NCBI GenBank assembly: GCA_964016885.1
Contig: OZ024745.1
Span: forward strand, 22,134,001 to 22,198,000
DNA from: Eledone cirrhosa
Taxonomy: Eukaryota
Direction of reading: 5' to 3'
DNA length: 64,000 nucleotides
Shown: in pieces, positions 5,769 to 55,784 of the stretch
How the letters are laid out: each line of letters begins with the position of its first letter
How positions within the stretch are numbered: the stretch's first letter is position 1
Made by a program: the position numbers and the translations under genes
Notes under the pieces: model-generated
What the model was told of the DNA's origin: nothing
The model's input: only the letters and a program-made list of their open reading frames with translations
Databases searched by the model: none

Positions 5769-6395
5769 CTATCCGTTAGGGTCTAACGTGGGGCTGTAAT
5801 ACAGGAAAGTTTTGTGCAATTTATGTTTACAAGCCGAAATTGCCTCAGATTTTTTGTTTAAGATGTGGTCTGTAGCGTAGAGTATTTCCAGGGCCTCAGC
5901 GGCGCAGAGGTCACATGGTCTTTTATTTCCGTTATACGATCTAGCCCTAGCTAGGATATCCCAGTGTAACTTATATTGGGTGTGGTTGTCTTTTAGACTC
6001 CAGATATAAGCTGAAAGTGACGTCATATTCCTTCTTAGAGGGTAACGAAAAGAATGGGTATGCATGTAAAGACGCTGCTTGAAACTATTGGCGGTTAACC
6101 CTATGTAGGCCCTACGGGACGTGGGTGTTACAACCTTACATTTGTAGACAATGTTACTAGAGAGGTATTTCCCGGATAGGGGGCAATCAGCCCGATTCCT
6201 ACAATTACAGTTAGTACTAACTACAGGGTTGCACGTGTTCCTACGGCTAGGTAGTTTAGCTAAATTTGAAGCTGTGATGTTATGTGCAAGGTTAGGAGTC
6301 GTAGAGTAAGAAATTTTAATAGTATTTCTATTAAAAATTTTACTATATTTATGTGTAGGGGGAAAATGCTTCGTAATAAGGGAAAGAAAGATCTT
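5769..6395 (-). pseudogene. PLE ORF C-terminal fragment (Cys-rich linker plus GIY-YIG endonuclease)
   Basis: Frame is open upstream of the listed ORF: KHFPPTHKYSKIFNRNTIKISYS..NCNCRNRADCPL..IVYKC..AYIGLT..FKQR..CDLCAAE..CKH. Confidence 0.9.
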
Positions 6396-6659
6396 ATCTT
6401 CGTTTTTTCGTTCATTGCCAGAGAACGTCTCTATGCACCACCTAAGAGAACATTAGTCTACGACCTCTTTTATACCATAAACGTGGTTTTGTCTTTGCGC
6501 GTAATTGTTTTTCACCGCTCCTATTAATGACGTATTATTCGTTTTTTCCCGTTCTTTGCCAGCGAACGTTACCACGAACCAAAGTATCGTCTTCCTGTCT
6601 TCCTCCGGTTGCAACGTTTTTTGAAATATCCAGTTCTGCGTTTACAGATTGACTTTGTT

Positions 6660-10054: not shown

Positions 10055-10250
10055 TTATTAAAATAACAGATTAAAGTTTAAGCAAAGAATCGCTGCTTTC
10101 ACCCTTAACGGGAAGGGTGAAAGCAGCGATTCTTTGCTTAAACTTTAATCTGTTATTTTAATAAATATTTGCTCTACGGTTCTTATATATTTTATATATA
10201 TTTTCCTTATCGAGCCCTCTTTGGATTTTAGTCTTCAATTTTATTATTAT

Positions 10251-15355: not shown

Positions 15356-15400
<45 letters not shown>

Positions 15401-15404
15401 TAAA

Positions 15405-15790
15405 TGGAAAAGAATGAAACGAAATTTCATTTCTCACTCTTAGTATGGCTGATACTTAAATGTAAGTATGTATGTATACGTACATACATATATGTATACA
15501 GACGTACATATATATATATATGTACGTATGGGTTTACCGAATATTTTTTATAATGCTCGGTTTGTTTGTTTGTAAACAAACAGCCCGAATTACGCCGTAC
15601 AGTGTTTAGGCAACCACGCCACCTTTTTGTTCAACACTGACACAGGAACGATGTACTAGTTTCAAGCTTATTAGCTATCGTCAGCATCGTATACCTTCCT
15701 GCCAGAGGGCTGAACGTCTGAAAGTATATACTTTCCTTATGCATATTAACGGCTGAGCAGCCTAATTTGCATATCGAGTGAGTTAGTCAT
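15405..15790 (-). mobile_element. Partial copy of the 453-nt HHR monomer family (HHR 15648-15690)
   Basis: rc acgatg-CTGACGA-tagc taataa gctt-GAAA-ctag-TA-catcgt; homologous to 44503-45435. Confidence 0.85.
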
Positions 15791-22274: not shown

Positions 22275-22926
22275 GCTCATAAATATACAGTCACAGACAC
22301 ACATATATATACATGCAAACACATATATACACACATACACTTACATATATATATAAATACATGCACACATATGTATACATACGCATATACGTACATACGT
22401 ACATACAAACACACTCAAACATGCATGGACGCACATATACGTACACACATCCATCCATATATACACACATAAATACATGTACACATCTATACATATATAC
22501 ACACACATATATAAATAAATAAACATATATATTTACATATGTAGATATACCTACACATATACAAACATAGATAACTACTTATACACATACATATATACAT
22601 TGCATATATATATATATATATATTAAAATAACAGATAATATATATACACATGCAAACATATCCCCCCTTCATAAAAAAGAGTAAGTACTAGGCCATATTT
22701 ATGTTATGGCAATATAGCCAATAGCTATGATTTATTGTAATGTTGCAGTGTACTATGGATGGGAAACAATCTGAAAAATGGACCATAACGCACCAGAGTA
22801 CTCAATACTTAGGGTAGTAGAGTGGGAAATAGGAAAATGTTTAACCCCGACGGCAGAGCTCAAGCCGTTTCGACGGCTATTTCTGGACGCAAAAACAGCT
22901 TGAGCTCTGCCGTCGGGGTTAAACAT

Positions 22927-22987
<61 letters not shown>

Positions 22988-24130: not shown

Positions 24131-24187
<57 letters not shown>

Positions 24188-24193
<6 letters not shown>

Positions 24194-25125
24194 CAAATAA
24201 CGAAACGAAATTAAATTTCGTTTCGTTTGTAACTCACTTTCGTATGACTGACGCTTAAACAATTAAGTTAAAAGTGTACATCCACATATGTATACTGAAA
24301 TACTGGTATGCATATAAACACACACACGTATACATATGTACATGTACCGAGTTTTTCAATGGACACTTTACTGTGAGTGTCTAGCTAGTCTGTATGTAAC
24401 CAAACAGACAAACCGGTTTTTAGAGTCATACTGGTTTTCAAGGAAACACCTTTCCTCTATTCTCCAGAGAGCCAGACAGGAATATTGGACTAGTTTCGAT
24501 GTTATTACATCTCATCAGCAATATTTACCCATCCTCCGGCCTCTCTAGAGAATCGTAAAAGCACATATCGTTATATGCTTTTTCTATGAAAATTAGTAGT
24601 GGGCAGACTAATTTGCATAGAGCGTGAGTACGTACCGGTTCAGCGGAAACGATAAAAACAAATAACGAAACGAAATTAAATTTCGTTTCGTTTGTAACTC
24701 ACTTTTTGTATGACTGACGCTTATTTGTTTTTATCGTTTCCGCTGAACCGGTACGTACTCACGCTCTATGCAAATTAGTCTGCCCACTACTAATTTTCAT
24801 AGAAAAAGCATATAACGATATGTGCTTTTACGATTCTCTAGAGAGGCCGGAGGATGGGTAAATATTGCTGATGAGATGTAATAACATCGAAACTAGTCCA
24901 ATATTCCTGTCTGGCTCTCTGGAGAATAGAGGAAAGGTGTTTCCTTGAAAACCAGTATGACTCTAAAAACCGGTTTGTCTGTTTGGTTACATACAGACTA
25001 GCTAGACACTCACAGTAAAGTGTCCAGTGAAAAACTCGGTACATGTACATATGTATACGTGTGTGTATTTATATGCATACTAGTATTTCAGTATACATAT
25101 GTGGATGTACACTTTTAACTTAATT

Positions 25126-25130
<5 letters not shown>
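24188..25130. mobile_element. Retrozyme-like element: 465-nt hairpin-rich monomer, about 1.15 copies (minus) plus about 0.9 inverted permuted copy (plus)
   Basis: 24189-24257 repeats at 24654-24723; inversion junction about 24724; HHRs 24481-24525 (minus) and 24861-24905 (plus). Confidence 0.88.
24861..24905 (+). ncRNA. Canonical minimal type I hammerhead ribozyme (GUC site)
   Basis: aatattg-CTGATGA-gatgt aata acatc-GAAA-ctag-TC-caatatt; all helices perfect. Confidence 0.92.
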
Positions 25131-25196
<66 letters not shown>

Positions 25197-25197
25197 A

Positions 25198-25360
25198 AAT
25201 AAAAAAAATAAGATGCTGAGGTTACATATATCGATTAAACGATATATGTAACCTCAGCATCTTATTCTGTTATTTTATAAAATTCTCCATCGTAACTAAA
25301 AAAACGATTGTTGAGAGCTCTCTCCTCTTTACTCCTGTTTTTACCAAAACAATCTTTTCC
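25198..25360. mobile_element. Small fold-back with one-sided extension
   Basis: aataagatgctgaggttacatatatcg / cgatatatgtaacctcagcatcttatt. Confidence 0.6.
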
Positions 25361-25424: not shown

Positions 25425-25585
25425 ATATTAAATAAATGGAAACTATATTTAAAAACCATATTTATTCTATTATATATATTTCAAGGGTACCAACACTTTG
25501 GTACGCTTTCATCAGATAAAATACGAAGTGTGTTTTATAAATTTTGACATAACCAAGGAAAATGCCTTAACGGTTTTACTTGGAT
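25420..25585 (-). mobile_element. Solo PLE terminus with HHR (25463-25523)
   Basis: Same family as 10901-11271. Confidence 0.8.
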
Positions 25586-34479: not shown

Positions 34480-37275
34480 ATTTCTGATTATCTATCATGC
34501 TTTACCTATTCCATTTTTATGTTTCTTGGTTTTCTTTCTATATGTTGTTCTTTTGCTCATGTAGCCACTTTCGTAATCTTTCTTCCATTCTATCATTCTT
34601 ATCTTCTTTCTTTTTTATATTATTTTTATCCCTCGCTATTTCCTACTTTCTTTCATTCAATTTCTCTCCCTTTCTTATCCATCCAACATCATATTTCTAA
34701 CTATATTAGAGTATCAAATATTTTAACCCTTATCCTCTTCTAGAGGTATAGTTTATACTGAAAATCGTTTCAAACAAAAACAAAAGCACACAACAACAAA
34801 CCGGTTAAAACCAAAGAAATTTCGGCCAAATTAAGCATGAACATTTTCGCAAAATGGCAAAGCGGTTCAAACCAGTTCAAACTTGATCGATCTGGCTTAC
34901 AACATTTCAGTCCAGTTGAAGTCAGATTAAAACAATTCAGAATGTTTCAAATGCATTAAAATCGAAGTAAATCTCCATAAATCAAGCTCAAATTAGCTCG
35001 AAATCCCGCAACGCAAAGTCCTATCAACTGCTCAATATGATGTTCAGCCTGATCATATTTGTTTAAAACAGTTCTACAACTTCCCTGTTTCTCAAACCAG
35101 AAACAGTTTCTACACAACCAAGAATAAATAAGGGAAAGAAACGTAAAAATATTTAAACTGGCACAAATTGAATCAATCCAATGCAATCCAGGGGCTTCTC
35201 ACCCCTGTTGATGGAACCCCTCCTTTTTTGACCTCCAGCGCTTTCTCTTTGGTTTGAGACTTGTCAGGGATGTAGCCTTGTCCACCACCCTTGGCCAATT
35301 GCGGGCTTGTGAGGCTATTTAACCCATAGTTGGGGTGGACTTTTTTAATCAAGTGAATTGTAACTTCTAACTCCGATTTCCCTCGCATTGGTAGTCTTCT
35401 AGAAGACCATGGTCACCAATAATTTCTTTTTAAAGCCATAAAATAAATATATTACCTTTTAAAAGAAAGTTAACGTTAGCAAATTGGAGGAAATTAACAG
35501 AAATTTCATTAAAATTGCAAATATAATTAATAGCTCAATCCAGAAAAAGTAAACTGCAATAAGCTAGGAGGTAACCAGAAGGTCCTGTGCAATTTTAAAA
35601 CAAGGCAAACTAATGTAAATCAGATCAAATTTGTTCCAATATTTTTATACAAGTTCAAACACGCCTAGACCAGTTTAAACCAGTTCAGATTAGGTTCCGT
35701 CAGACCAAATCGTCTATAAAGGGATCCAAGTGAACTAGAGTGGATATAAAATATAAAAACTGTCATTAAACACAAAAGAAATTGCATATAGTATGGCCTA
35801 TGCTTGAGAAAACCTGATAAAAAACAGAAAATTTGATTAAACCAAGAATATAAGAGTTGAAGACTGTCAATGTTTGACCAAATCTCGATTCACGTGGATT
35901 CGGATTCACTGTTTAATTAGGGACAAAATAAAACAAATTGCTTCAAAAGAGAATCAAGCCTTCGTAAATCGTTACCAATTTCATCCTGTAGCGGTTTGAT
36001 CCAAAATTGATCAAAATTGATGCAAATTAGCATTAAACAGATGAAATGGCTTAAATCAAGAATAATCATGTTCAGGCAAAAATATATAAAAACAAAGAGG
36101 TTAGAATCTGTTAAATCTGTCCTAAGTATTTTTAACCTTCTTTCGAAATAGTCCATAAATATCGAAATGGGTTACAAAGGATTAAAAAAATAGGCTCATT
36201 TACATGGAACAGAAAATAGCGTGTAAATATACCCCCCCCCCCCCCCCAACCCCCCATACACAAATATTCAATTTAGACAGTTTTTATTCAATCAGATCAA
36301 TATTATCCAATGAAGACCAAAGTAACCCAATCGACAAGATATCTGAAACCGAATGGCAGGAAAAGGTAAATATACTGACGAATTTCAAACAACTTCAAAG
36401 ATGGAATATTCTGCTATTTGCATTGTAAGTATGGAGTGTTTTGTGATTGTAGCATGGCCACGTCGAGAAATTCATTTGTGTGACATATTGTGACTATAGG
36501 AAATGAAGTTAAGAAAAAACAAACAATCATACACAACTCTCCTGCACACGACAATTAAACAGAGAGGAAATCCAACGGCGAAACATTTACGTGGTCATTG
36601 CGTCTGCAAAAAATAACAGCCAAATTCCATTAAAATTCGACCAAACTGTCTTAACAGAAAGCACATTTATTGATATTGTACAAAGTACATTCTCCTTGGC
36701 AAAAATGCAAAAAATTCGAAGTAGTCAGGTAGAATGGTTTTGATCATATCTTCGCTTCTTTGGGGCCGACTTTGGGTTAAACAACAATAACAACACTAAA
36801 TAAATCTATCAAATTAAATCACACCTTTATACAGAAACATTAAAGTGATTATTGCAAGCTATATGAAATATTCCTTACACAATTCATTGACCAGTCGATA
36901 AAAGTTGAGAAAGTAAACCTCTCACGTCTTTGTCACATAATAAACTTTTCACGTGCAGCTCTGATTCACTTCTAAAACCATTTTCATTCCACTTTGTACT
37001 TACCTTAATGAATATTGGTTTCACTGCTTGTCTCACCTGTGATACATACTGACATGTTTGCCGATTTACCAAATCTGTTATTTTTCTTACACACTTGTCT
37101 GCTGCGTATACACTAGATTGTTTAAAATATTTAACCCTGACCGCTATCGTTATCTTTCTATATACAAACGAAACAGTTATATATGAAATAAAAAATGCCT
37201 ATACTCTACCAATGTATTACAGAATCTTTTTTAATTGTAGTTACCTTCAGACACACACATATATATATATATATT

Positions 37276-38119
37276 GCACTGGAGAAACACCAGGACTCTG
37301 GCTTTACTGTAGCACCGGCTCAGAGCAGGAGAGTGGGGGCGAAAAAGGTATCGGATGCTGAATTTGCCGACGACATAGTTTTGGTGACAAATACAGTGAA
37401 GGAGGCAGAGGATTTGATGCGGGAGGTTGAGACTGTGTCGATGAGTGTGGGGCTGAGAATGAATGAGACTAAAACAAAATATCTGGTAGAGAATGTTGAG
37501 AAGCCAGAGGGGATCACTAATGTAGGCGGGAAGCCGCTGGAATTGGTTGAGGACTTCCTGTATTTGGGAGCAAAGATTGGGAATACGGAGGATGATGTGG
37601 TTGAGAGGAAGAGCAAGGCCTGGGCGGCGTGCCACAGCTTGAGATCGGTGTGGAAGTCGGACCTTCGTAGAGACCTGAAAATCCGCCTCTTCATTGCTGT
37701 AGTGGAGTCTGTGCTGCTGTATGGGTCTGAGACTTGGACACTGACCAAGAAACTCACTCAGATGGTGGATAGGTGCTACACGAGAATGCTGAGGATGGCT
37801 CTGAACATTAATCAGTATACACTGAGGATGAAAAACTCAGAGCTGTATGGGAGCATCCCAAAAGTCAGCTCAAAAGTGACACAGAGGAGACTGAGGTTGG
37901 CTGGACATGCTCACCGACATCCAGAGTTGACATTGCACTCAGTGCTCCTTTGGGAGCCCCTACATGGACACACTAGAAGAGGAAGACCAAGGTTAACATA
38001 TGTTGATGCGCTAAGGACAGACACTGGTCTGTTGGAGATGCAGGATATGGCAGCGATAATGAGGGACAGAGACCGCTGGAGAGAACTCGTCCATGGATCT
38101 CGGGAATTTTACCCGCCTT

Positions 38120-38121
<2 letters not shown>
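37276..38121 (+). mobile_element. 5'-truncated RTE-clade LINE: RT C-terminal part with intact frame, ending in (AT)n
   Basis: EFADDIVL, VGLRMNETKTK, FLYLG, LLYGSETWTL, RRLRLAGH, RRGRPRLTY, RDRDRWR. Confidence 0.92.
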
Positions 38122-39944: not shown

Positions 39945-42900
39945 TGTAGGAGGTGCGTTTTATTGTAGTACAATAAAGCAATTCAGATATCGGATAAGAA
40001 GCACTCTACAGTTTGTGGGACTGGAGTATGCATAATATAAGATCAAAAGATGGTTAAAGGATTTCCATATATTTTATTATGCGCATTTCAAAAACAAACA
40101 TCATCAAGCAATAATATTTGTGTTTTCATCAGATAAAACAGGAGAACATGATATGAAGGCTAAAAATACACTTGTTGATAGTGCAGTTTTAAATCAACAT
40201 ATGAAAAGTGGTTTTAGATTGATGTGTGATATTGGGAAAAATATTTTATTTAGGGAGGGGGGGGGGGGAGGATGAAAAAAGGGGGGGAGGAGATGAGAGT
40301 GAAGGTGGAGAGGGAGAGATGGGTGATAGAGAGAAAGAGATAGTTTTTATAACTGAGAAAAAGATATATTGTTTTAATATAGAGAGGTTGGGAACAGTTG
40401 GGAGATAATGTATAAATTAAAGGAATTTGAAAATTAACGAAGGGAAATTATGTATGAAGATGGAGAGAAAAAAAATAATAATTGTGGGTGAATATTCTAA
40501 CGTCAAAAGAAGAAATGTATGTATTGTGGCAATTTCAAAATTAGCGAAGAGAAAAATTGTTAAGGTTTGTGTGTAGAAGGATTTGAGAAAAATAATGTGA
40601 AGTTAAAGTTTGTATATTGAATTGATATGTATTAATAATGAGTTCGTTGATGGGGAGAAAAAAATAATAATAAATTAAGGATGAAATTGAGATTAAAAAG
40701 ATTTATGATAGAGAGAAAAAATAATAATGATTGCGGATGAATATTCAAAATGTCAAAAACAAATGTTATTATTTTACGAGAAGATAGAATGAGGGTAATG
40801 AGTAAACGAGTATTATAGAGTGTATAATGCCCTTTAAAGTAAGGTAGATGGGTATATTTTAAAGAGGTGTATGTATATGTGCCTTTGAGAAAAGATTCTA
40901 AATTGATAAAGAATTGAATATTAACTGTAAAAGAGGTGTATGTATATGTGCCTTTGAGAAAAGATTCTAAATTGATAAAGAATTGAATATTAACTGTATA
41001 CTTTGTGAAAAGTTCTATGGAATTTATGCAGGCAGATAGAAAACAAATCTGAGCGTCTATTTATTATAGATTCTAGGTTAGAGATAATGGTAAATTTTTC
41101 ATTTAGGCAGAGATTACAGATTTTAGATAGAGAGCTGTTCAAGTATGAGGATGCAGAAGAAATCTTTTTCCAAAAGATGTTATATTTAATGTTTTTGTCT
41201 TTTAAGGACCATATGAGTTCTGAGAGAGCAGTGTTAGTTCTTTTAAGTTTGTATTTGAAAGATGAATGATGATTATAGAGACGAGCTTTAAAAGAGGTGG
41301 AAGTGGAGCCAAAATAGGTGAAGGAATTGGTGCTAGTTATAATTTTACATTCATAAATTAAGTTTTTATCGAGGCAATGGTTGTTGAGAGGACATTTATT
41401 TTTAATGCGGCAGTTGCAATTAGAGAGATTATTAATGAGTGATCTAGTGTTATCTATAGAAGGAATTGGATTGGAGAAGTTGTTTGCGATAGGAATAATA
41501 GGAATAATAGTTTCTTGATTTAGAGTTGGATTATGAACATTTAGCGAAGTTGTGTTTGACGTTGTATTTGGGTTTACAGAAGTTAGCCTAGGGTTTACAA
41601 TGACGTCGGGAGTACTATTACTGTTATTATGAAATTCAATATTGGAAGGAAGAGATTTAGTATTTAATATTTTGTTGTTGTGTTTAGAGATGATGTTGGA
41701 AATATTGGAGGATGTAGAATACGAAAATTTGATGGTGTGTTTGTTAAATATTTTACTATAGATATGTGAGGGAGGGAAGCATTTATTTAAGGCACTAAAA
41801 AATAATTTAGGAATATTGTTATTAATAGAGATGGAGAAAGGAGCATTATACCAGATTATGTTTTTGTATCTAGGTCTTTTATTAAAATTATTGGAATGGT
41901 CATGATTAATTATTCTACTGTAAGTTTTCCTAGAATTTGTTTCTTTATTATATTTGATTTTATCTGGATAGCCGGCTTTAGAAAGTGCGTTATTATAGTA
42001 ATTGGCGTTAGCATCAAAGATGTTTTTATTAGAAGATATGTTAGATATTCTATTTCCAATATTATTAACTATAGCATTCTTGATATTGGTAGGATGGTTA
42101 GATTTAAAGTTAACATAATTAAGATTCTCATTGTTTTTATGGTAAGGGTAATATAGGCTAATTTCTTGGATGTATCTCTTAATCTTGACACTGGCCTATA
42201 TTACCCTTACCATAAAAACAATGAGAATCTTAATTATGTTAACTTTAAATCTAACCATCCTACCAATATCAAGAATGCTATAGTTAATAATATTGGAAAT
42301 AGAATATCTAACATATCTTCTAATAAAAACATCTTTGATGCTAACGCCAATTACTATAATAACGTACTTTCTAAAGCCGGCTATCCAGATAAAATCAAAT
42401 ATAATAAAGAAACAAATTCTAGGAAAACTTACAGTAGAATAATTAATCATGACCATTCCAATAATTTTAATAAAAGACCTAGATACAAAAACATAATCTG
42501 GTATAATGCTCCTTTCTCCATCTCTATTAATAACAATATTCCTAAATTATTTTTTAGTGCCTTAAATAAATGCTTCCCTCCCTCACATATCTATAGTAAA
42601 ATATTTAACAAACACACCATCAAATTTTCGTATTCTACATCCTCCAATATTTCCAACATCATCTCTAAACACAACAACAAAATATTAAATACTAAATCTC
42701 TTCCTTCCAATATTGAATTTCATAATAACAGTAATAGTACTCCCGACGTCATTGTAAACCCTAGGCTAACTTCTGTAAACCCAAATACAACGTCAAACAC
42801 AACTTCGCTAAATGTTCATAATCCAACTCTAAATCAAGAAACTATTATTCCTATTATTCCTATCGCAAACAACTTCTCCAATCCAATTCCTTCTATAGAT

Positions 42901-44429
42901 AACACTAGATCACTCATTAATAATCTCTCTAATTGCAACTGCCGCATTAAAAATAAATGTCCTCTCAACAACCATTGCCTCGATAAAAACTTAATTTATG
43001 AATGTAAAATTATAACTAGCACCAATTCCTTCACCTATTTTGGCTCCACTTCCACCTCTTTTAAAGCTCGTCTCTATAATCATCATTCATCTTTCAAATA
43101 CAAACTTAAAAGAACTAACACTGCTCTCTCAGAACTCATATGGTCCTTAAAAGACAAAAACATTAAATATAACATCTTTTGGAAAAAGATTTCTTCTGCA
43201 TCCTCATACTTGAACAGCTCTCTATCTAAAATCTGTAATCTCTGCCTAAATGAAAAATTTACCATTATCTCTAACCTAGAATCTATAATAAATAGACGCT
43301 CAGATTTGTTTTCTATCTGCCTGCATAAATTCCATAGAACTTTTCACAAAGTATACAGTTAATATTCAATTCTTTATCAATTTAGAATCTTTTCTCAAAG
43401 GCACATATACATACACCTCTTTAAAATATACCCATCTACCTTACTTTAAAGGGCATTATACACTCTATAATACTCGTTTACTCATTACACTCATTCTATC
43501 TTCTCGTAAAATAATAACATTTGTTTTTGACATTTTGAATATTCATCCGCAATCATTATTATTTTTTCTCATAAATCTTTTTAATATCAATTTCATCCTT
43601 AATTTATTATTATTTTTTTCTCCCCATCAACGAACTCATTATTAATACATATCAATTCAATATACAAACTTTAACTTCACATTATTTTTCTCAAATCCTT
43701 CTACACACAAACCTTAACAATTTTTCTCTTCGCTAATTTTGAAATTGCCACAATACATACATTTCTTCTTTTGACGTTAGAATATTCACCCACAATTATT
43801 ATTTTTTTTCTCTCCATCTTCATACATAATTTCCCTTCGTTAATTTTCAAATTCCTTTAATTGATACATTATCTTCCAACGGTTCCCAACCTCTCTATAT
43901 TAAAACAATATATCTTTTTCTCAGTTATAAAAACTATCTCTTTCTCTCTATCACCCATCTCTCCCTCTCCACCTTCACTCTCATCTCCTCCCCCCTTTTT
44001 TTCATCCTCCCCCCCCTCCCTAAATAAAATATTTTTTCCTCGCACATATCCTCCCTTCGTTAATTTTCAAAATTTTTAATTTATACAGTATCTTCCAACG
44101 GTTTTCAACCCCTCTATGTAAAAAATATATCTCCTCTCAGTTATAAAAACTATCTCTTTCTCTCTATCACCCATCTCTCCCTCTCATCTCCTTCCCTTTT
44201 CATCCCCCCCCCTCTCTAAATAAAATATTTTTCCCAATATCACACATCAATCTAAAACCACTTTTCATATGTTGATTTAAAACTGCACTATCAACAAGTG
44301 TTTTTTTAGCCTTCATATCATGTTCTCCTGTTTTATCTGATGAAAACACAAATATTATTGCTTGATGATGTTTGTTTTTGAAATGCGCATAATAAAATAT
44401 ATGGAACTCCTTTAACCATCTTTTGATCT

Positions 44430-44438: not shown

Positions 44439-44502
<64 letters not shown>

Positions 44503-44506
<4 letters not shown>

Positions 44507-45435
44507 TTGTAATATAATGAAACGGAGTTTCATTTCTCACTCTTAGTACGGCACTTACTTAAATGTAAGTATGTATGTATACGTACATACATATATGTAT
44601 ACAGACGTACAGTAGCATGCATATATATATATATATACATACAGGTACACATATATATATGTACGTATCAGTTTAGCGAACGTTTATTATAACGCCCGCT
44701 TTGTCCGTTTGTAAACAAGCGAACAGCCTGATTTATGCCATACGGTGTTAAGGCAACCACGTCAGCTTTTTGTTCAACACTGACACAGGAACGATGTACT
44801 AGTTTCAAGCTTGTTAGCTATCATCAGCACCGTATACCCTTCTGCCAGATAGTTGAACGTTCGAAAGTATATACTTTCCTTATGAAAATTAACGGCTGAG
44901 CAGCCTAACAGGACAAAGCGGGCGTTATAATAAACGTTCGCTAAACTGATACGTACATATATATATGTGTACCTGTATGTATATATATATATATATATGC
45001 ATGCTACTGTACGTCTGTATACATATATGTATTTACGTATACATACATACTTACATTTAAGTAAGTGCCGAAATAAGAATGAGAAATGAAATTTCGTTTC
45101 ATTATATTACAACTTATCGTTTTCGGTACGCCTGGCCGACTGAACTCACTCGATATGCAAATTAGGCTGCTCAGCCGTTAATTTTCATAAGGAAAGTATA
45201 TACTTTCGAACGTTCAACTATCTGGCAGAAGGGTATACGGTGCTGATGATAGCTAACAAGCTTGAAACTAGTACATCGTTCCTGTGTCAGTGTTGAACAA
45301 AAAGGTGACGTGGTTGCCTTAACACCGTATGGCATAAATCAGGCTGTTCGCTTGTTTACAAACGGACAAAGCGGGCGTTATAATAAATGTTCGCTAAACT
45401 GATACGTACATATATATATGTGTACCTGTATGTAT
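44503..45435. mobile_element. Retrozyme-like element: 453-nt monomer, about 0.9 copy (minus) plus about 1.15 permuted copies (plus)
   Basis: ggacaaagcgggcg at 44911 and 45364; HHRs 44791-44833 (minus) and 45237-45279 (plus). Confidence 0.88.
45237..45279 (+). ncRNA. Minimal type I hammerhead ribozyme
   Basis: acggtg-CTGATGA-tagc taacaa gctt-GAAA-ctag-TA-catcgt. Confidence 0.88.
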
Positions 45436-45444
45436 GTATATATA

Positions 45445-48212
45445 TATATATATATAATAAATGGGTACAAAATATACGCAAGTATACATACATAAATGCG
45501 GCTGAGGGACAACAGAAAATATCTGGAGTTAAAAACACAAGTGACATGTGATGTCTGGTAGTGAAAGAAAAGGGGAAAGTAAAATAAATGTAAATAATGT
45601 ATAATTGTTAAGATATAAAGTTAATGAATCAAATAGCGGGGGGGGGGGGGGGTCACTACTGGATGTAAAGTAAAAATAAAGATAAGTAAAGCTGAATGAG
45701 AAGTCTATAAAAAAGGTAAGTTAAGGAAAGTGAAGAACAAGAGTTTATGGAGGATAAGTGTCTGAAAGTGAGTTAAGTTTATATGAGCTGGAAAGCAAAT
45801 ATGATTTCATGAGTGGGCAACTGATGAACATTTCTGTTTTTGCATTTAGGCAGGTTTTTGGTGATTTAAGGTTCTGTAAAAACCAATATTTTTCACTTAT
45901 GCAGAGTGCGCATCTTCTTGTTCCTCTTGCGTATTCTTTAGAATGGTTCAAAATTGACCAATCTAATTTATATTGGATACCTTGGTCCTTCAAATCCCAA
46001 ATTCTGCTAGCCAGAGCTGTTGTAAATCTTTTTTCAGGATGTCAGAAAGATGCGACATGTAAGTAATAATGCATTTTGAATTTGTCTTGTGTCATACCCA
46101 CATATCGTTCGCTGGTGGCTGGTAGGTTGTTGCTTTGTTGCTGGTGGTTGTCACTTTGGCCTCATATACAATGGCTTTGGTGTTGCATTTACTTTGTAAT
46201 GAGCATTCACTTTTGACTCTACAGGAGCAATTTTGATATTCTCTGGGTGTTTTCTTATTAAGGATAGATTTAATAGAGGGACCGCAGGAGTAGTTGATTT
46301 TGACACAATTTCTATTGAAGATCTTATAGTATCTATGTGTTCTAGGGAAATGTTTATCTAAGAGCTCTGGGAATGTTTTGCCTACATTAGTTTTAACTGC
46401 TAAAGAGTAGGGGGTGTGAATCAGATTATTTTTCTTTTCCTATTATTATGTTTAAAGGAGTTAGTATTGTTGGACATGTACTTAATCGGTTCACTAAATC
46501 CACTATTTTGAAGGGCTTTATTATAGTAGGTGGATGCCTTATTGAAAATAGCTTCTGAGGAAGAGAGGGTGGAGATCCTACGGCTAATATTAGGGATGAG
46601 ATTTTTAAATAATATAGGAGGATGGCAAGAGCCTTTATTTATGTATTTTAAATTTTCATTAGGTTTATGGTACGGTTTATAAGAAGCAGTAGACAGATCT
46701 AGGTTTACATCTAGAAAATTAACATTAGAAAGGTTTCTGGCAATTGTAATTTTAAGATTAAAACTAGCGAAGGTTTTTATTAAGTCTTTCCTGAATCTGT
46801 CTATGTTATGGCCTATCGTAGTATGGGAAAGTATTAGACCATCGTCACGATAAAGCCCAATGGTATGGTTATGGAATTTCTCTTTAAGTGTGTAAAGGAG
46901 GAATAGGCCGACTAAATCGCACACGTCAGCACTGTCAAAAGAACCCATTGAGACATCGAAGGGGTTCTCTGGGTTAGATTTTATTTTACCCAAGTATCAT
47001 TATTAGTAAACAGTAAAGTATTTCTAGCATGCAAAATGACATTCTCTTCAATATCAGAAATATTAATAAACTTTTTAGCAAAATTTAATGCTTTTGTTAA
47101 AAGAAGGAGAGTAATAGACGGGTAGAAGTCTACAATGTCAAATTGGGTGAATCTAGAACTATTTTTATCTTTAATATTTTTAAACCAATGTACTACAGAA
47201 GAGCTATTTATCCATTGGAGTAATTCTGACTTACTTCTAATATGTTTGTTTATGTTATTTAATATTTTTTTGCTAGCAAGGCCGATTTCAGTCTTAGCAG
47301 GGTTGATTAATCTACAACTGGGACGATTATTAAAATCGATCTTTAAGAGTGATATAGGCATTACGTTTTGCAAATGTTTCTGTTCTATTGTCTATTTTAA
47401 AAAAAACTAGCTAATTCTTTGGCGTCCTTATTAATAGTATTATAGGGATTTATGTTAGCTCTTTGGTATTTAGAGGTGATGCTATCTGTATAGAGTTGGT
47501 CATGTAAGTTATTATTAACTTCGTATTATTAACTTCAGAGAAAATGAACTTATTTTTAGAAGATTTGAATTTTGAAATATCGTTAGAGGGTTTAGATTGA
47601 AAAGAGTTAAAGTACTTACGGAATTTGATTTGGTTAATTAAATTAACTAAGTCTAGTTCAAAAGCGGTCATGTCTTTTACCCTTTGTGGGTATTTATGAG
47701 ACTTGATGTCAAAGTATTCTGTAGAGTCCGTGATAAAGTGTCCGTCGAAAATCAAAGCTTTCCATCTCATCCTTTTTACAACTTTTTCTACTTTGTCGAT
47801 CAACATTTTAGTGTAGGAAGTGTTAGAAGGTGTTGGTATATTCTTGATGGAGTAATCCAAAAAATAACAATCCATGTTAGGTATTGGTTAAAATTCCTTT
47901 TAACTGAAGAGTGCTCGACTTTAAGGGCCTGGAAGGTGCCAGAATCATATAAATGTAGAATATGCTACAATCATTCCGTTGGGAGCTGTATAAGTATTGA
48001 AGTTTTCGTTGAAAATTGAAAAGGTCAGAGGAATGAAGAGTGCTATATGTAAGTTCCAGAACAGAGCTAAATATTTAATGTATAATAAACAATACAATAT
48101 AATTACCTCATTACCAAAGGTTTCCCGAATAATACGAATACAAGAAACGTCCGCATTCGTCCGTCAGACAAGGCAATTTAAAACATAGTGAAATATTTCA
48201 AAAATCATCTCA

Positions 48213-48282: not shown

Positions 48283-50791
48283 AATATATTAACAAATATA
48301 AACTATATTTATAAAACCATATTTATTTCATTATACATATTTCAAGGGCCACCAAGGCAAACTATGGTGCGCTTTCATCAGATAAAATATAATATACGTT
48401 AGTTTTATAAATAAATATTGACATACCCTGAAAAAATGAAACCATTCTGGTTGGAATCTCCTGGATAGTGAAGTTATTAGATTTATTGTTGGTTTATTAT
48501 GCAAATTAATGACGGGAAGGTTTAAACAACAGTATATTTAAATTAAGCCGTTAGAATAAGGAAGAAAGAAAGAGAAAAAAACGAAAGAAAGAGAATAAAC
48601 CTGAGTATATTTAAGTGAGAGAGAATATTAGTTATAAGGATAGTAATAGCGTAATTTTGAGAGAAGAGGCGAAGAAATGAATATAGCGTGGATGAATACC
48701 GTAGCGTGGATAAATAATAATATCCGGATTCATTATAATGATAAGCTGAAGAATTTTATCTAATGTTTAATTAATAAATTTGATTAAATGTTTAATTAAT
48801 AATTTATCAATTCAATCCGTAGTTTAAATGTGTATGTTAGATTATTAAAAGTGAGACCTATATATTATTAAAGAATATATATTATTAAAATATATATTAT
48901 TAGAAAATATGTTATTATTACAAAACCATATATAATTTTATTAATTATTAATTAATTATTTAAAAGTTTAAAATATCCGAATATTTCTAAGCCTATGGAA
49001 ATTCCGAGAGTTTACAGAAGAATGATCCCTTATTTGTAATAGCAGTAGAGCGTAAAGGAAATTGCTAGTGATTTATTAATAATTTAGATAGCTCTAAGGA
49101 TTAAATACTATGAAGTTAAGATCTTAAAAAATTAAATTTTCCATCTTAATAATGTAATTAGAGTATGAATCTTATGTTATTTTATAGCAAGTTATAATTT
49201 CATAAATCTACCTGTTATACAGTTATGACTGTTAAAACATAAATTTCTTTGCTATAACGTCTTAACATTTAACATTTTTTCATAGGAATATATCTAAAGC
49301 ATAAACCATAAAAAACTCTTTCATAAGAGTATATCTATAGAATATATTTAAAGTATAAATTTTATATATATATATAAACATTTTTATATATATATATATA
49401 TTAAGCATTTGAAAAAGATAGAAATATAGAAATATTTAAAAAAATGAATTGTAATTTTTAAAAATATAAGAATATAGAAAATAAAATACACAGTATAAAA
49501 TATGAATTATGAATTATAATTTCCTTATACCCATCAGAGGAATTTTCAAAAAAATCCTTCTTCAAATCTTTCAGTACGTTTATCAAGAAAAGTTTTTCAA
49601 GAAAAAAATGTTTTCCAAGAAAACATTGTTCTTTTAAGAGAGTTATAAGCAGCCATATGAAGGAATCTAATGAATTATCGATAGGTTTAATAAAGAAGAG
49701 TTATGTATTACATTTTATATATATATATTTAAACGTTGAGTTCAATCTATGTTTGCAAGAACTGAAAAGATTATTCCTTAAATTAACAGAATTCTTACTT
49801 TTTAATATAAAGAATATTTCCTCTATACGAAGAGCACAATTTTCAGAAGAAGCATTGAATGGAGGAGCTTTGGAGATAATATTCCAAAGTAAAGAATAGA
49901 TAGTGTTCTTTGATTTTAGGTCCCATAGTAAATTAGATAGAGAAGTTGAAGATTTTTTATTTATATTCGTAAAAGAGCATTTATGGTTATTAAAACGGGA
50001 CTTAAAATCTGTGGAGGTAGAGCCTACGTAATTAAATGAATTTAAATTAGTTTTTACATTACAATTATATACTATATTTTTAACTAAACAATTGTTATTT
50101 AACGGACAGTTAGATTTATTTCGACAGTTACATTTATCAAAATTTAAGTTTCTAGGAGCCGTATTATTCAGTTGGATATTGCTGGGGTCATTAATGGTAT
50201 TCTGGTTAGGTTTTAAGTTTCTATTATTAATTCTATTAATATTCTGCGCTAAATTACTGGTGGTTGAATACGTTAATTTTATAGTATGTCTATTAAATAT
50301 TGAGTAATACCTATGTGTTCTAGGGAAGCATTTATCTAGAGCTTTAAAGAATAATTTAGCAATAGGAGTTTTAATACTTAATGAGAAAGGAGGAGCGAAC
50401 CATAATATATTCCTAGTTCTATTTCTTTTTTTGTTTTTCGAATTATTGTAAGGTTTTCTATTATAGTTGTTAAAATTATGGTTATTTGTCATATCATTAT
50501 TATCAATGTATTTAATTTTATTACTATATCCAGCTCTACCTAACGCTTCGTTATAATATTGCGCTTTATCTTCAAAAATATTCTTATTAGCTGAAATTCT
50601 AGAAATACGTTGCTGCACAGAGTTTACTATAGTGTTTTTAAGGGATCTGGGGGTGATTGGAATTAAAATTAACGTAGTTTAAGTTCTCGTTTATTTTGTG
50701 AAATGGATAATACAGACCATAGTTTGCCTTGGTGGCCCTTGAAATATGTATAATGAAATAAATATGGTTTTATAAATATAGTTTCCATTTG

Positions 50792-52480: not shown

Positions 52481-55722
<3,242 letters not shown>

Positions 55723-55784
55723 GTATATATATATATATATATATATGTAAATATATATATACATATTTATATTTATATATATTC

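Follow-up and report, generated by a model that had tools for sequence, protein, structure and literature searches.

A two-armed hammerhead element in Eledone cirrhosa, very probably a PLE-mobilised retrozyme, with a likely record of RNA editing

The element at positions 24188-25130 of a 64,000-nt stretch of Eledone cirrhosa DNA, hereafter the window, is in all likelihood a PLE-mobilised non-LTR retrozyme. We think it reasonably likely, reading from sequence, that such two-armed insertions at (TA)n are PLE-written from a single RNA of unit length, likely circular and likely edited by ADAR, with two start sites, and we lean towards a single-circle mechanism for them. Taken alone the window copy is ordinary, being short and, with a single hammerhead in each arm, a dead end; its family gives countable predictions: strict pairing of two end sites (A+B), template variants common to both arms, and edits in every pass.

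The region is flanked on both sides by (TA)n runs and consists of two outward-pointing arms, with the following features.

24133..24189, no strand: (TA)n run, the left target site, adjoining the left arm
24188..24723, minus strand: left arm, 536 nt (1.15 monomer units of 465 nt), running leftwards to its tail-bearing end at site B
24188..24257, minus strand: tail of ~70 nt between end sites A and B, with a hairpin at 24199-24227
24466..24536, minus strand: left-arm type I hammerhead, core start 24518, predicted cut after 24488
24653..24723, minus strand: second tail copy, forming the 5' end of the left arm, placed from direct repeats and yielding the 465-nt period
24721..24723, no strand: head-to-head junction of the arms, a 3-nt overlap
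24721..25130, plus strand: right arm, 410 nt, 5'-truncated, stopping at site A, tail-less
24850..24920, plus strand: right-arm type I hammerhead, with CUGAUGA at 24868-24874, GAAA at 24889-24892 and GUC at 24896-24898
24875-24879/24884-24888, plus strand: stem II of the right-arm hammerhead, with compensatory pairs in stems I and II
25129..25196, no strand: (TA)n run, the right target site, adjoining the right arm
24336..24548, plus strand: 70-aa ORF on the strand antisense to the ribozyme, with a mirror copy at 24838-25050 (minus strand); we do not regard it as a gene

Self-comparison of the window aligns 24256-24665 with 24721-25130 as arms of 410 nt that are 99% complementary and separated by 55 nt. 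They differ at 3 of 410 positions, which supports the view of an earlier note on this DNA that near-identical arms mark a young insertion. All three differences lie on the left arm, one of them being A>G on the ribozyme strand, and this counts against the reading we prefer. Direct repeats (54 nt at a spacing of 465 and 20 nt at a spacing of 466) bear out the 465-nt period and inverted arm which that note described, the period arising because the ~70-nt segment sits at both ends of the left arm. The more-than-unit-length copy at this locus is the left arm and the tail-less copy the right arm; the "permuted inverted arm" of the note is the standard inverted 5'-truncated copy of a PLE.

The longest stop-free frame within the window element is 76 aa, with no RT plus GIY-YIG ORF. 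Pfam is as silent on the mirrored 70-aa ORFs as the earlier note, which recognised no motif in them, and the antisense frame is open in just 22 of 95 fully covered family copies (99 examined); on these two results we reject a protein role. For a transcript running through the window locus, folding predicts a 410-bp hairpin of -774 kcal/mol that buries the hammerhead, and with one hammerhead per orientation the locus cannot itself release a unit-length monomer.

Folded as a circle, the natural 465-nt monomer (24652..24188, minus strand) reaches -150.1 kcal/mol, whereas 60 dinucleotide shuffles of the same sequence average -98.9 +/- 6.6 (z -7.7, with none of the 60 as good), so the proposed comparison with shuffles came out in favour of a structured element, and the fold is branched, as had been claimed. 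All six hairpins listed in the earlier note are found in the sequence, and the circular folds of both strands contain them; because hairpins themselves fold in either strand, the antisense circle is likewise strong (z -7.4). Five other 465-nt stretches of the window, folded as controls, gave z values of 0.0 to -1.25, and the monomer of subfamily C gave -12.3.

The hammerhead, described earlier as a perfect GUC hammerhead, is indeed intact and carries its GTC at 24896-24898, but its helix III has just one A-U pair, capped by a palindromic CUAG loop, so that the hammerhead is not of the canonical monomer-active form. Rfam HH9 matches both window arms at 32.7 bits, below the gathering score of 52, and the 81-nt hammerhead alone folds with a z of just -1.41 and without helix III. 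An alignment of six sequences from the main family, a subfamily and a sister family, scored against a specified structure, has 97.5% of its cells paired and 6 of 15 pairs compensatory, with 0 of 500 shuffles as high and slid-structure controls at 54% paired at most, a modest test because the six rows amount to about three lineages. No ribozyme was found in the antisense polarity of the unit. The idea that the scissile C is a mutational hot spot was also considered and rejected, with 16 variant matches against 1,518 for the overlapping standard pattern (raw counts). Hammerheads with a weak helix III are described as weak alone and active as dimers, with circRNA products for the axolotl retrozymes (PMC7229834), and the consulted part of PMC7761336 agrees on the activity; among Xenopus retrozyme dimers assayed in vitro, one of nine cleaved and eight did not, according to the part consulted of bioRxiv 10.64898/2026.07.22.740005.

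The family is large. A 26-mer from the tail hairpin has 8,935 exact genome matches, a 25-mer from the GUC hammerhead 1,518 and a variant marker 789, each with a control of 0. We mapped 99 stretches, picked by similarity, by position on contig C1 or by variant patterns and leaving aside nine duplicates of place or segment, array stretches L065-L068 and overlapping loci L114-L145; they comprise 65 simple two-arm insertions, 24 one-arm insertions, 5 complex ones and 5 that run off the stretch. The unit is a short, tandem, non-coding one with a period of 465-471 nt and appears to lack LTR/PBS/PPT organisation. At least two consecutive hammerhead units, the mark of an "active" retrozyme in bioRxiv 10.64898/2026.07.22.740005, occur in the family, though not in the window copy with its one per arm; among the 28 hammerhead-to-hammerhead spans listed, 26 belong to the main family.

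Insertion ends follow a strict plan. The 3' ends fall at two sites, A at ~230 nt past the cut site and B ~70 nt beyond A, and simple two-arm insertions pair them as A+B in 63 of 65 cases, the other two having one odd end; A+A or B+B pairs do not occur (0/65). An inverted 5'-truncated copy with a one-sided tail is hence the rule, as those 63 insertions attest, and 145 of 161 standard ends adjoin TA runs, in keeping with (TA)n targeting. Arms overlap at the junction by at least 1 nt in 39 of the 63 A+B insertions. The 5' ends are spread uniformly around the unit (KS p 0.32), with 2 of 126 lying within 5 nt of the cut site (3.0 expected), while 104 of the 126 arms span that site and 75 exceed one period. 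Since arms span the cut site and 5' ends are not enriched there, the template was not a cleaved linear monomer.

Some further observations concern transcription and relatives of the family. An snRNA-type internal promoter, of the kind that newt satellite 2 carries (PMC2220036, as far as consulted), was considered because the octamer ATGCAAAT is present in the unit, and found no support: three U2 upstream regions hold no full octamer, and the 36 comparisons made gave two weak matches at shuffle level, while in the youngest subfamily the octamer is gone. Among public runs none of RNA was listed as holding the element, which says nothing about its expression. Two runs from organisms B and C, which may be RNA or low-coverage DNA, each gave one contig of 497 or 499 nt, about one period plus 31; these lengths would fit a closed assembly-graph loop, but tandem DNA gives the same, and we do not count them as support for a circle. 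A sister retrozyme family, ~70-77% alike over the hammerhead region, lies in the window at 44500-45420 and 15400-15790; it keeps the CUAG helix III, has a GUA triplet, is two-armed at 44.5-45.4 kb and yields 4,025 first-look candidates in the genome, and in part of 15 loci it has two analogous ends ~58 nt apart, with TA-rich internal stretches that blur the mapping. Another hammerhead family, with a UAUA palindromic loop (window 2495, 10997/11081, 17922, 25515, 30684, 32608/32764 and 48381), forms opposed pairs ending ~60 and ~150 nt past the core on (TA)n, and is possibly the "first" family that the earlier note implied. A loose hammerhead-core pattern has 33 matches in the 64 kb, many of them opposed pairs beside (TA)n and some due to chance. 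Near-perfect short palindromes beside (TA)n at window 22836-22927, 10070-10149, 25199-25274 and 25490-25510 are probably small two-armed insertions of other families.

Hydra-type PLEs are plausible drivers of the family because Hydra elements target (TA)n (PMC8557442, in the part consulted). Their ORFs are abundant, with the motifs CxCx5C, DKT and RWK in window ORFs, and one PLE family of the window is rich in young copies, of which some keep a 719-aa frame open. The assignment to Hydra comes from these motifs, as four PLE-type window ORFs match no Pfam family. Comparison of the retrozyme with 30 loci of the 719-aa family found nothing in common beyond simple repeats, and with the PLE ORF regions of the window no similarity. 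Hydra-type ORF fragments, unrecognised by Pfam, lie at 40990-43362, 46421-47887, 49701-50678, 53889-55766 and 5769-6452, and at 40.0-44.4 kb a coding PLE is inserted as two inverted arms, each of which bears a hammerhead. At 37192-38121 there is a 309-aa C-terminal fragment of a LINE/RTE-like reverse transcriptase (weak RVT_1, DUF6451).

Arms and passes within an insertion resemble one another as copies of one template would. With four array stretches and three complex loci excluded, tandem passes differ by 0.8% and arms by 1.0% in the pooled data, and the between-locus median is 5.3%; the nearest other locus is on average 0.7% away, so that arm identity alone is no proof of one molecule. Of the locus-specific changes, 39, at 21 loci, are found in every pass of both arms (95 loci counted, excluding 8 that are arrays or complex).

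A young subfamily, L146-L159, found at several places on contig C1, carries a compensatory swap of A-U to U-A in stem II and a GUU triplet. GUU cuts more slowly, and this subfamily offers a natural experiment on a link between weaker cutting and longer insertions; its median arm length is 2.55 units against 1.2 in the GUC group (p 0.002). The GUU triplet goes unmentioned in PMC1636495. Internal divergence of the subfamily is 0.07% (31 differences in 44,399 letters), its arms reach 23 units, and L150 and L151 together show 3 differences in 12,212 letters over 27 units. This youngest subfamily also holds the most units (median 7 vs 2.4), often in both arms at once (8.7+4.9, 4.2+3.0 and 4.1+23), and almost no sub-patterns are common to some of its units. 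Across loci, unit number and within-locus divergence are not significantly related (p 0.14). Arrays L065-L067 (C1, 95.62-95.65 Mb), L031 and L161 contain 12 to >58 units with higher-order repeats, which shows that DNA-level expansion into satellite-like blocks does occur.

The changes present in every pass are strongly skewed. On the ribozyme strand A>G outnumbers T>C by 32 to 7 among all-pass locus-specific changes (22 to 7 without L044, p 0.0045), in contrast to 21 against 36 among single-pass changes (Fisher p 1e-5), polarity being taken from the five nearest loci, with some G>A calls at L149 representing a retained ancestral A. At L044 all 10 of 10 rare all-pass changes are A>G, lying close together immediately 5' of the hammerhead and recurring in two or three passes; a marker for this haplotype has 2 genome matches, both at L044. 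A double A>G at L158 is present in 4/4 passes, in both arms, and at no other place in the genome. Of the 6 differences that separate older from derived members of the young subfamily, 5 are A>G, and the window copy has A. We read this skew as likely A-to-I editing by ADAR; the expected neighbour preference does not reach significance (5' G in 2/32, 5.9 expected, p 0.11). Editing acts molecule by molecule, so identical marks across passes point to one monomer reread, and edited haplotypes that are unique in the genome yet stand in every pass favour rolling-circle reverse transcription of one edited RNA, though their source copy may be absent from a single assembly. We found no report of genomic evidence for retrozyme editing in the literature searched, largely open-access main texts.

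One change departs from this pattern. The A>G at 285, traced genome-wide to 33 matches at 6 loci, is in all passes at L146, L186 and L190, and in 2/7, 1/5 and 1/2 covering passes at L187, L188 and L189; L188 in addition has a 4-nt deletion confined to one unit of each arm. Its presence in some units only at three loci argues against a pure monomer circle and fits multimeric templates or later DNA events.

The strongest competitor to copying from a circle, although we judge it unlikely, retains the identical element and PLE and changes the template: an array already present would be read through into a linear multimer that stays uncleaved, which leaves no need for a circle. Long arrays exist as possible sources, at 3 of the 6 loci with the 285 change not every unit carries it, and the longer arms belong to the slower-cutting GUU subfamily. 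Uncleaved RNA is, moreover, the dominant in vitro substrate of the Anolis PLE in the portion consulted of PMC11167929. What speaks for a monomer instead is that unit-wise editing of such a multimer predicts an A>G excess among single-pass changes, and the excess lies in the all-pass class (32 vs 7, against 21 vs 36), that the L044 and L158 haplotypes have no source elsewhere in the assembly, and that old arrays are heterogeneous while young long arms are homogeneous. The age of the long arms also makes it improbable that short copies insert first and gain their units and arm identity later, in DNA, through unequal crossing-over and gene conversion: the subfamily with the most units is the youngest, often long in both arms, with hardly any sub-patterns common among its units. 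Local amplification is nevertheless favoured for vertebrate retrozymes (bioRxiv 10.64898/2026.07.22.740005, as far as consulted), higher-order repeats do occur in L031, L065-L067 and L161, and the 70-nt terminal repeat of B-ended arms could seed such growth.

That the first cDNA snapped back to template the second arm, with no independent priming from the other DNA end, seems to us very improbable, even if it would account for variants common to both arms and if perfect symmetry is seen at 3 of 63 junctions and mirroring in a few variants. The 5'-end offset between arms follows a uniform distribution (KS p 0.76), the lengths of the two arms show no correlation, either arm may be the longer (35 B, 28 A), and strict A+B pairing would demand a second site-specific step. 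We hold it equally far-fetched that the unit is a mere pseudo-LTR of an autonomous PLE, left behind as 5'-truncated fragments, since all mapped arms longer than one unit run 5' into a further unit, the inverted arm or flank, and neither the 30 loci of the 719-aa family nor the window PLE ORFs resemble it; in favour of this view the ends are PLE-like and Xenopus retrozymes resemble PLE pLTRs in the consulted part of bioRxiv 10.64898/2026.07.22.740005. The least probable reading is that of an endogenised viroid-like RNA replicating from RNA to RNA. Both strands fold far better than shuffles, and mussel retrozyme circles are not exact matches to genomic copies (PMC7229834, in the part consulted), yet the ribozyme occurs in a single polarity, the fold is branched rather than rod-like, and the viral and metagenome contigs searched hold no exact hammerhead match. 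The term "viroid-like" used in the earlier note thus suits a structured, hammerhead-bearing, unit-length element and fails for an autonomous RNA replicon: with one polarity, a chromosomal family of thousands of copies, a PLE footprint and no viral or metagenome match, this is not a viroid.

Copying from one circle, the reading we prefer, is consistent with earlier proposals. Retrozyme circles have been proposed as templates for PLE or LINE reverse transcriptases (PMC7229834), and tandem and inverted PLE insertions are named as an unsolved mechanism in PMC8557442, which also describes the PLE anatomy of an inverted 5'-truncated copy, a one-sided tail and (TA)n targeting; the Anolis PLE, for which uncleaved RNA is the main substrate in vitro, has two internal RT start sites and two-strand priming (PMC11167929), each source being cited for the part consulted. 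In the scheme we propose, multi-unit copies would be transcribed by read-through, neighbouring hammerheads would pair via the palindromic ACUAGU and cut as dimers, and a host ligase would close the monomer, so that the element probably passes through circular RNA. The lone hammerhead of a monomer circle would cut poorly and the circle would therefore persist as template, its hairpins open to editing by ADAR. A (TA)n-targeting PLE would then prime from both strands at sites A and B, one per break end, reverse transcription would roll 0.1 to 23 turns around the circle, and the two cDNAs would be joined head to head at short overlaps. More tentatively, with a probability that we put a little short of even, a PLE dimer may load one ADAR-edited circle, each subunit starting at its own site, and the edits may then seed new subfamilies. 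If true, RNA editing would drive heritable evolution of a genomic element, and the genome would hold a molecule-by-molecule record of circRNA retrotransposition; the skew points to germline A-to-I editing written back into DNA.

Known systems share parts of this picture. Hammerhead viroids and viroid-like circular RNAs (Avsunviroidae) are alike in being small, highly paired, hammerhead-bearing and of similar size, and differ from the present element with its one-polarity ribozyme, type I dimer form, thousands of chromosomal copies and retrotransposon footprint. The metazoan non-LTR retrozymes of coral, mussel and axolotl (Rtz331/Rtz353), in the consulted part of PMC7229834, have the same non-coding tandem unit of <50% GC, one type I hammerhead per unit, a highly self-paired circular fold and thousands of copies, and axolotl HHR_Amex1 has the same one-pair helix III with a palindromic tetraloop. 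At 465-471 nt the unit exceeds the 150-450 nt first reported for metazoan retrozymes (PMC7229834) and lies within the 51-972 bp range of a 2026 survey (bioRxiv 10.64898/2026.07.22.740005), both as given in the parts consulted. Retrozymes known from these sources form head-to-tail arrays, whereas here most insertions consist of a pair of opposed arms whose two fixed ends lie in (TA)n, and no target duplication is visible; their circles were seen by northern blot (PMC7229834), and ours would follow from the DNA. The portions consulted of PMC7229834 and bioRxiv 10.64898/2026.07.22.740005 contain no genomic editing record such as the putative one seen here. The EN+ PLEs Hydra, Neptune and Naiad, as far as PMC8557442 was consulted, resemble the family in partial tandems, an inverted 5'-truncated copy, a tail at one end and (TA)n targets, and Anolis Poseidon (PMC11167929, likewise) in two internal start sites. 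In contrast to EN+ PLEs, the present family has no RT/endonuclease ORF, a tail of ~70 nt where theirs has 30-40, arms with as many as 23 full passes, and an A+B pairing that can be counted, in 63 of 65 insertions.
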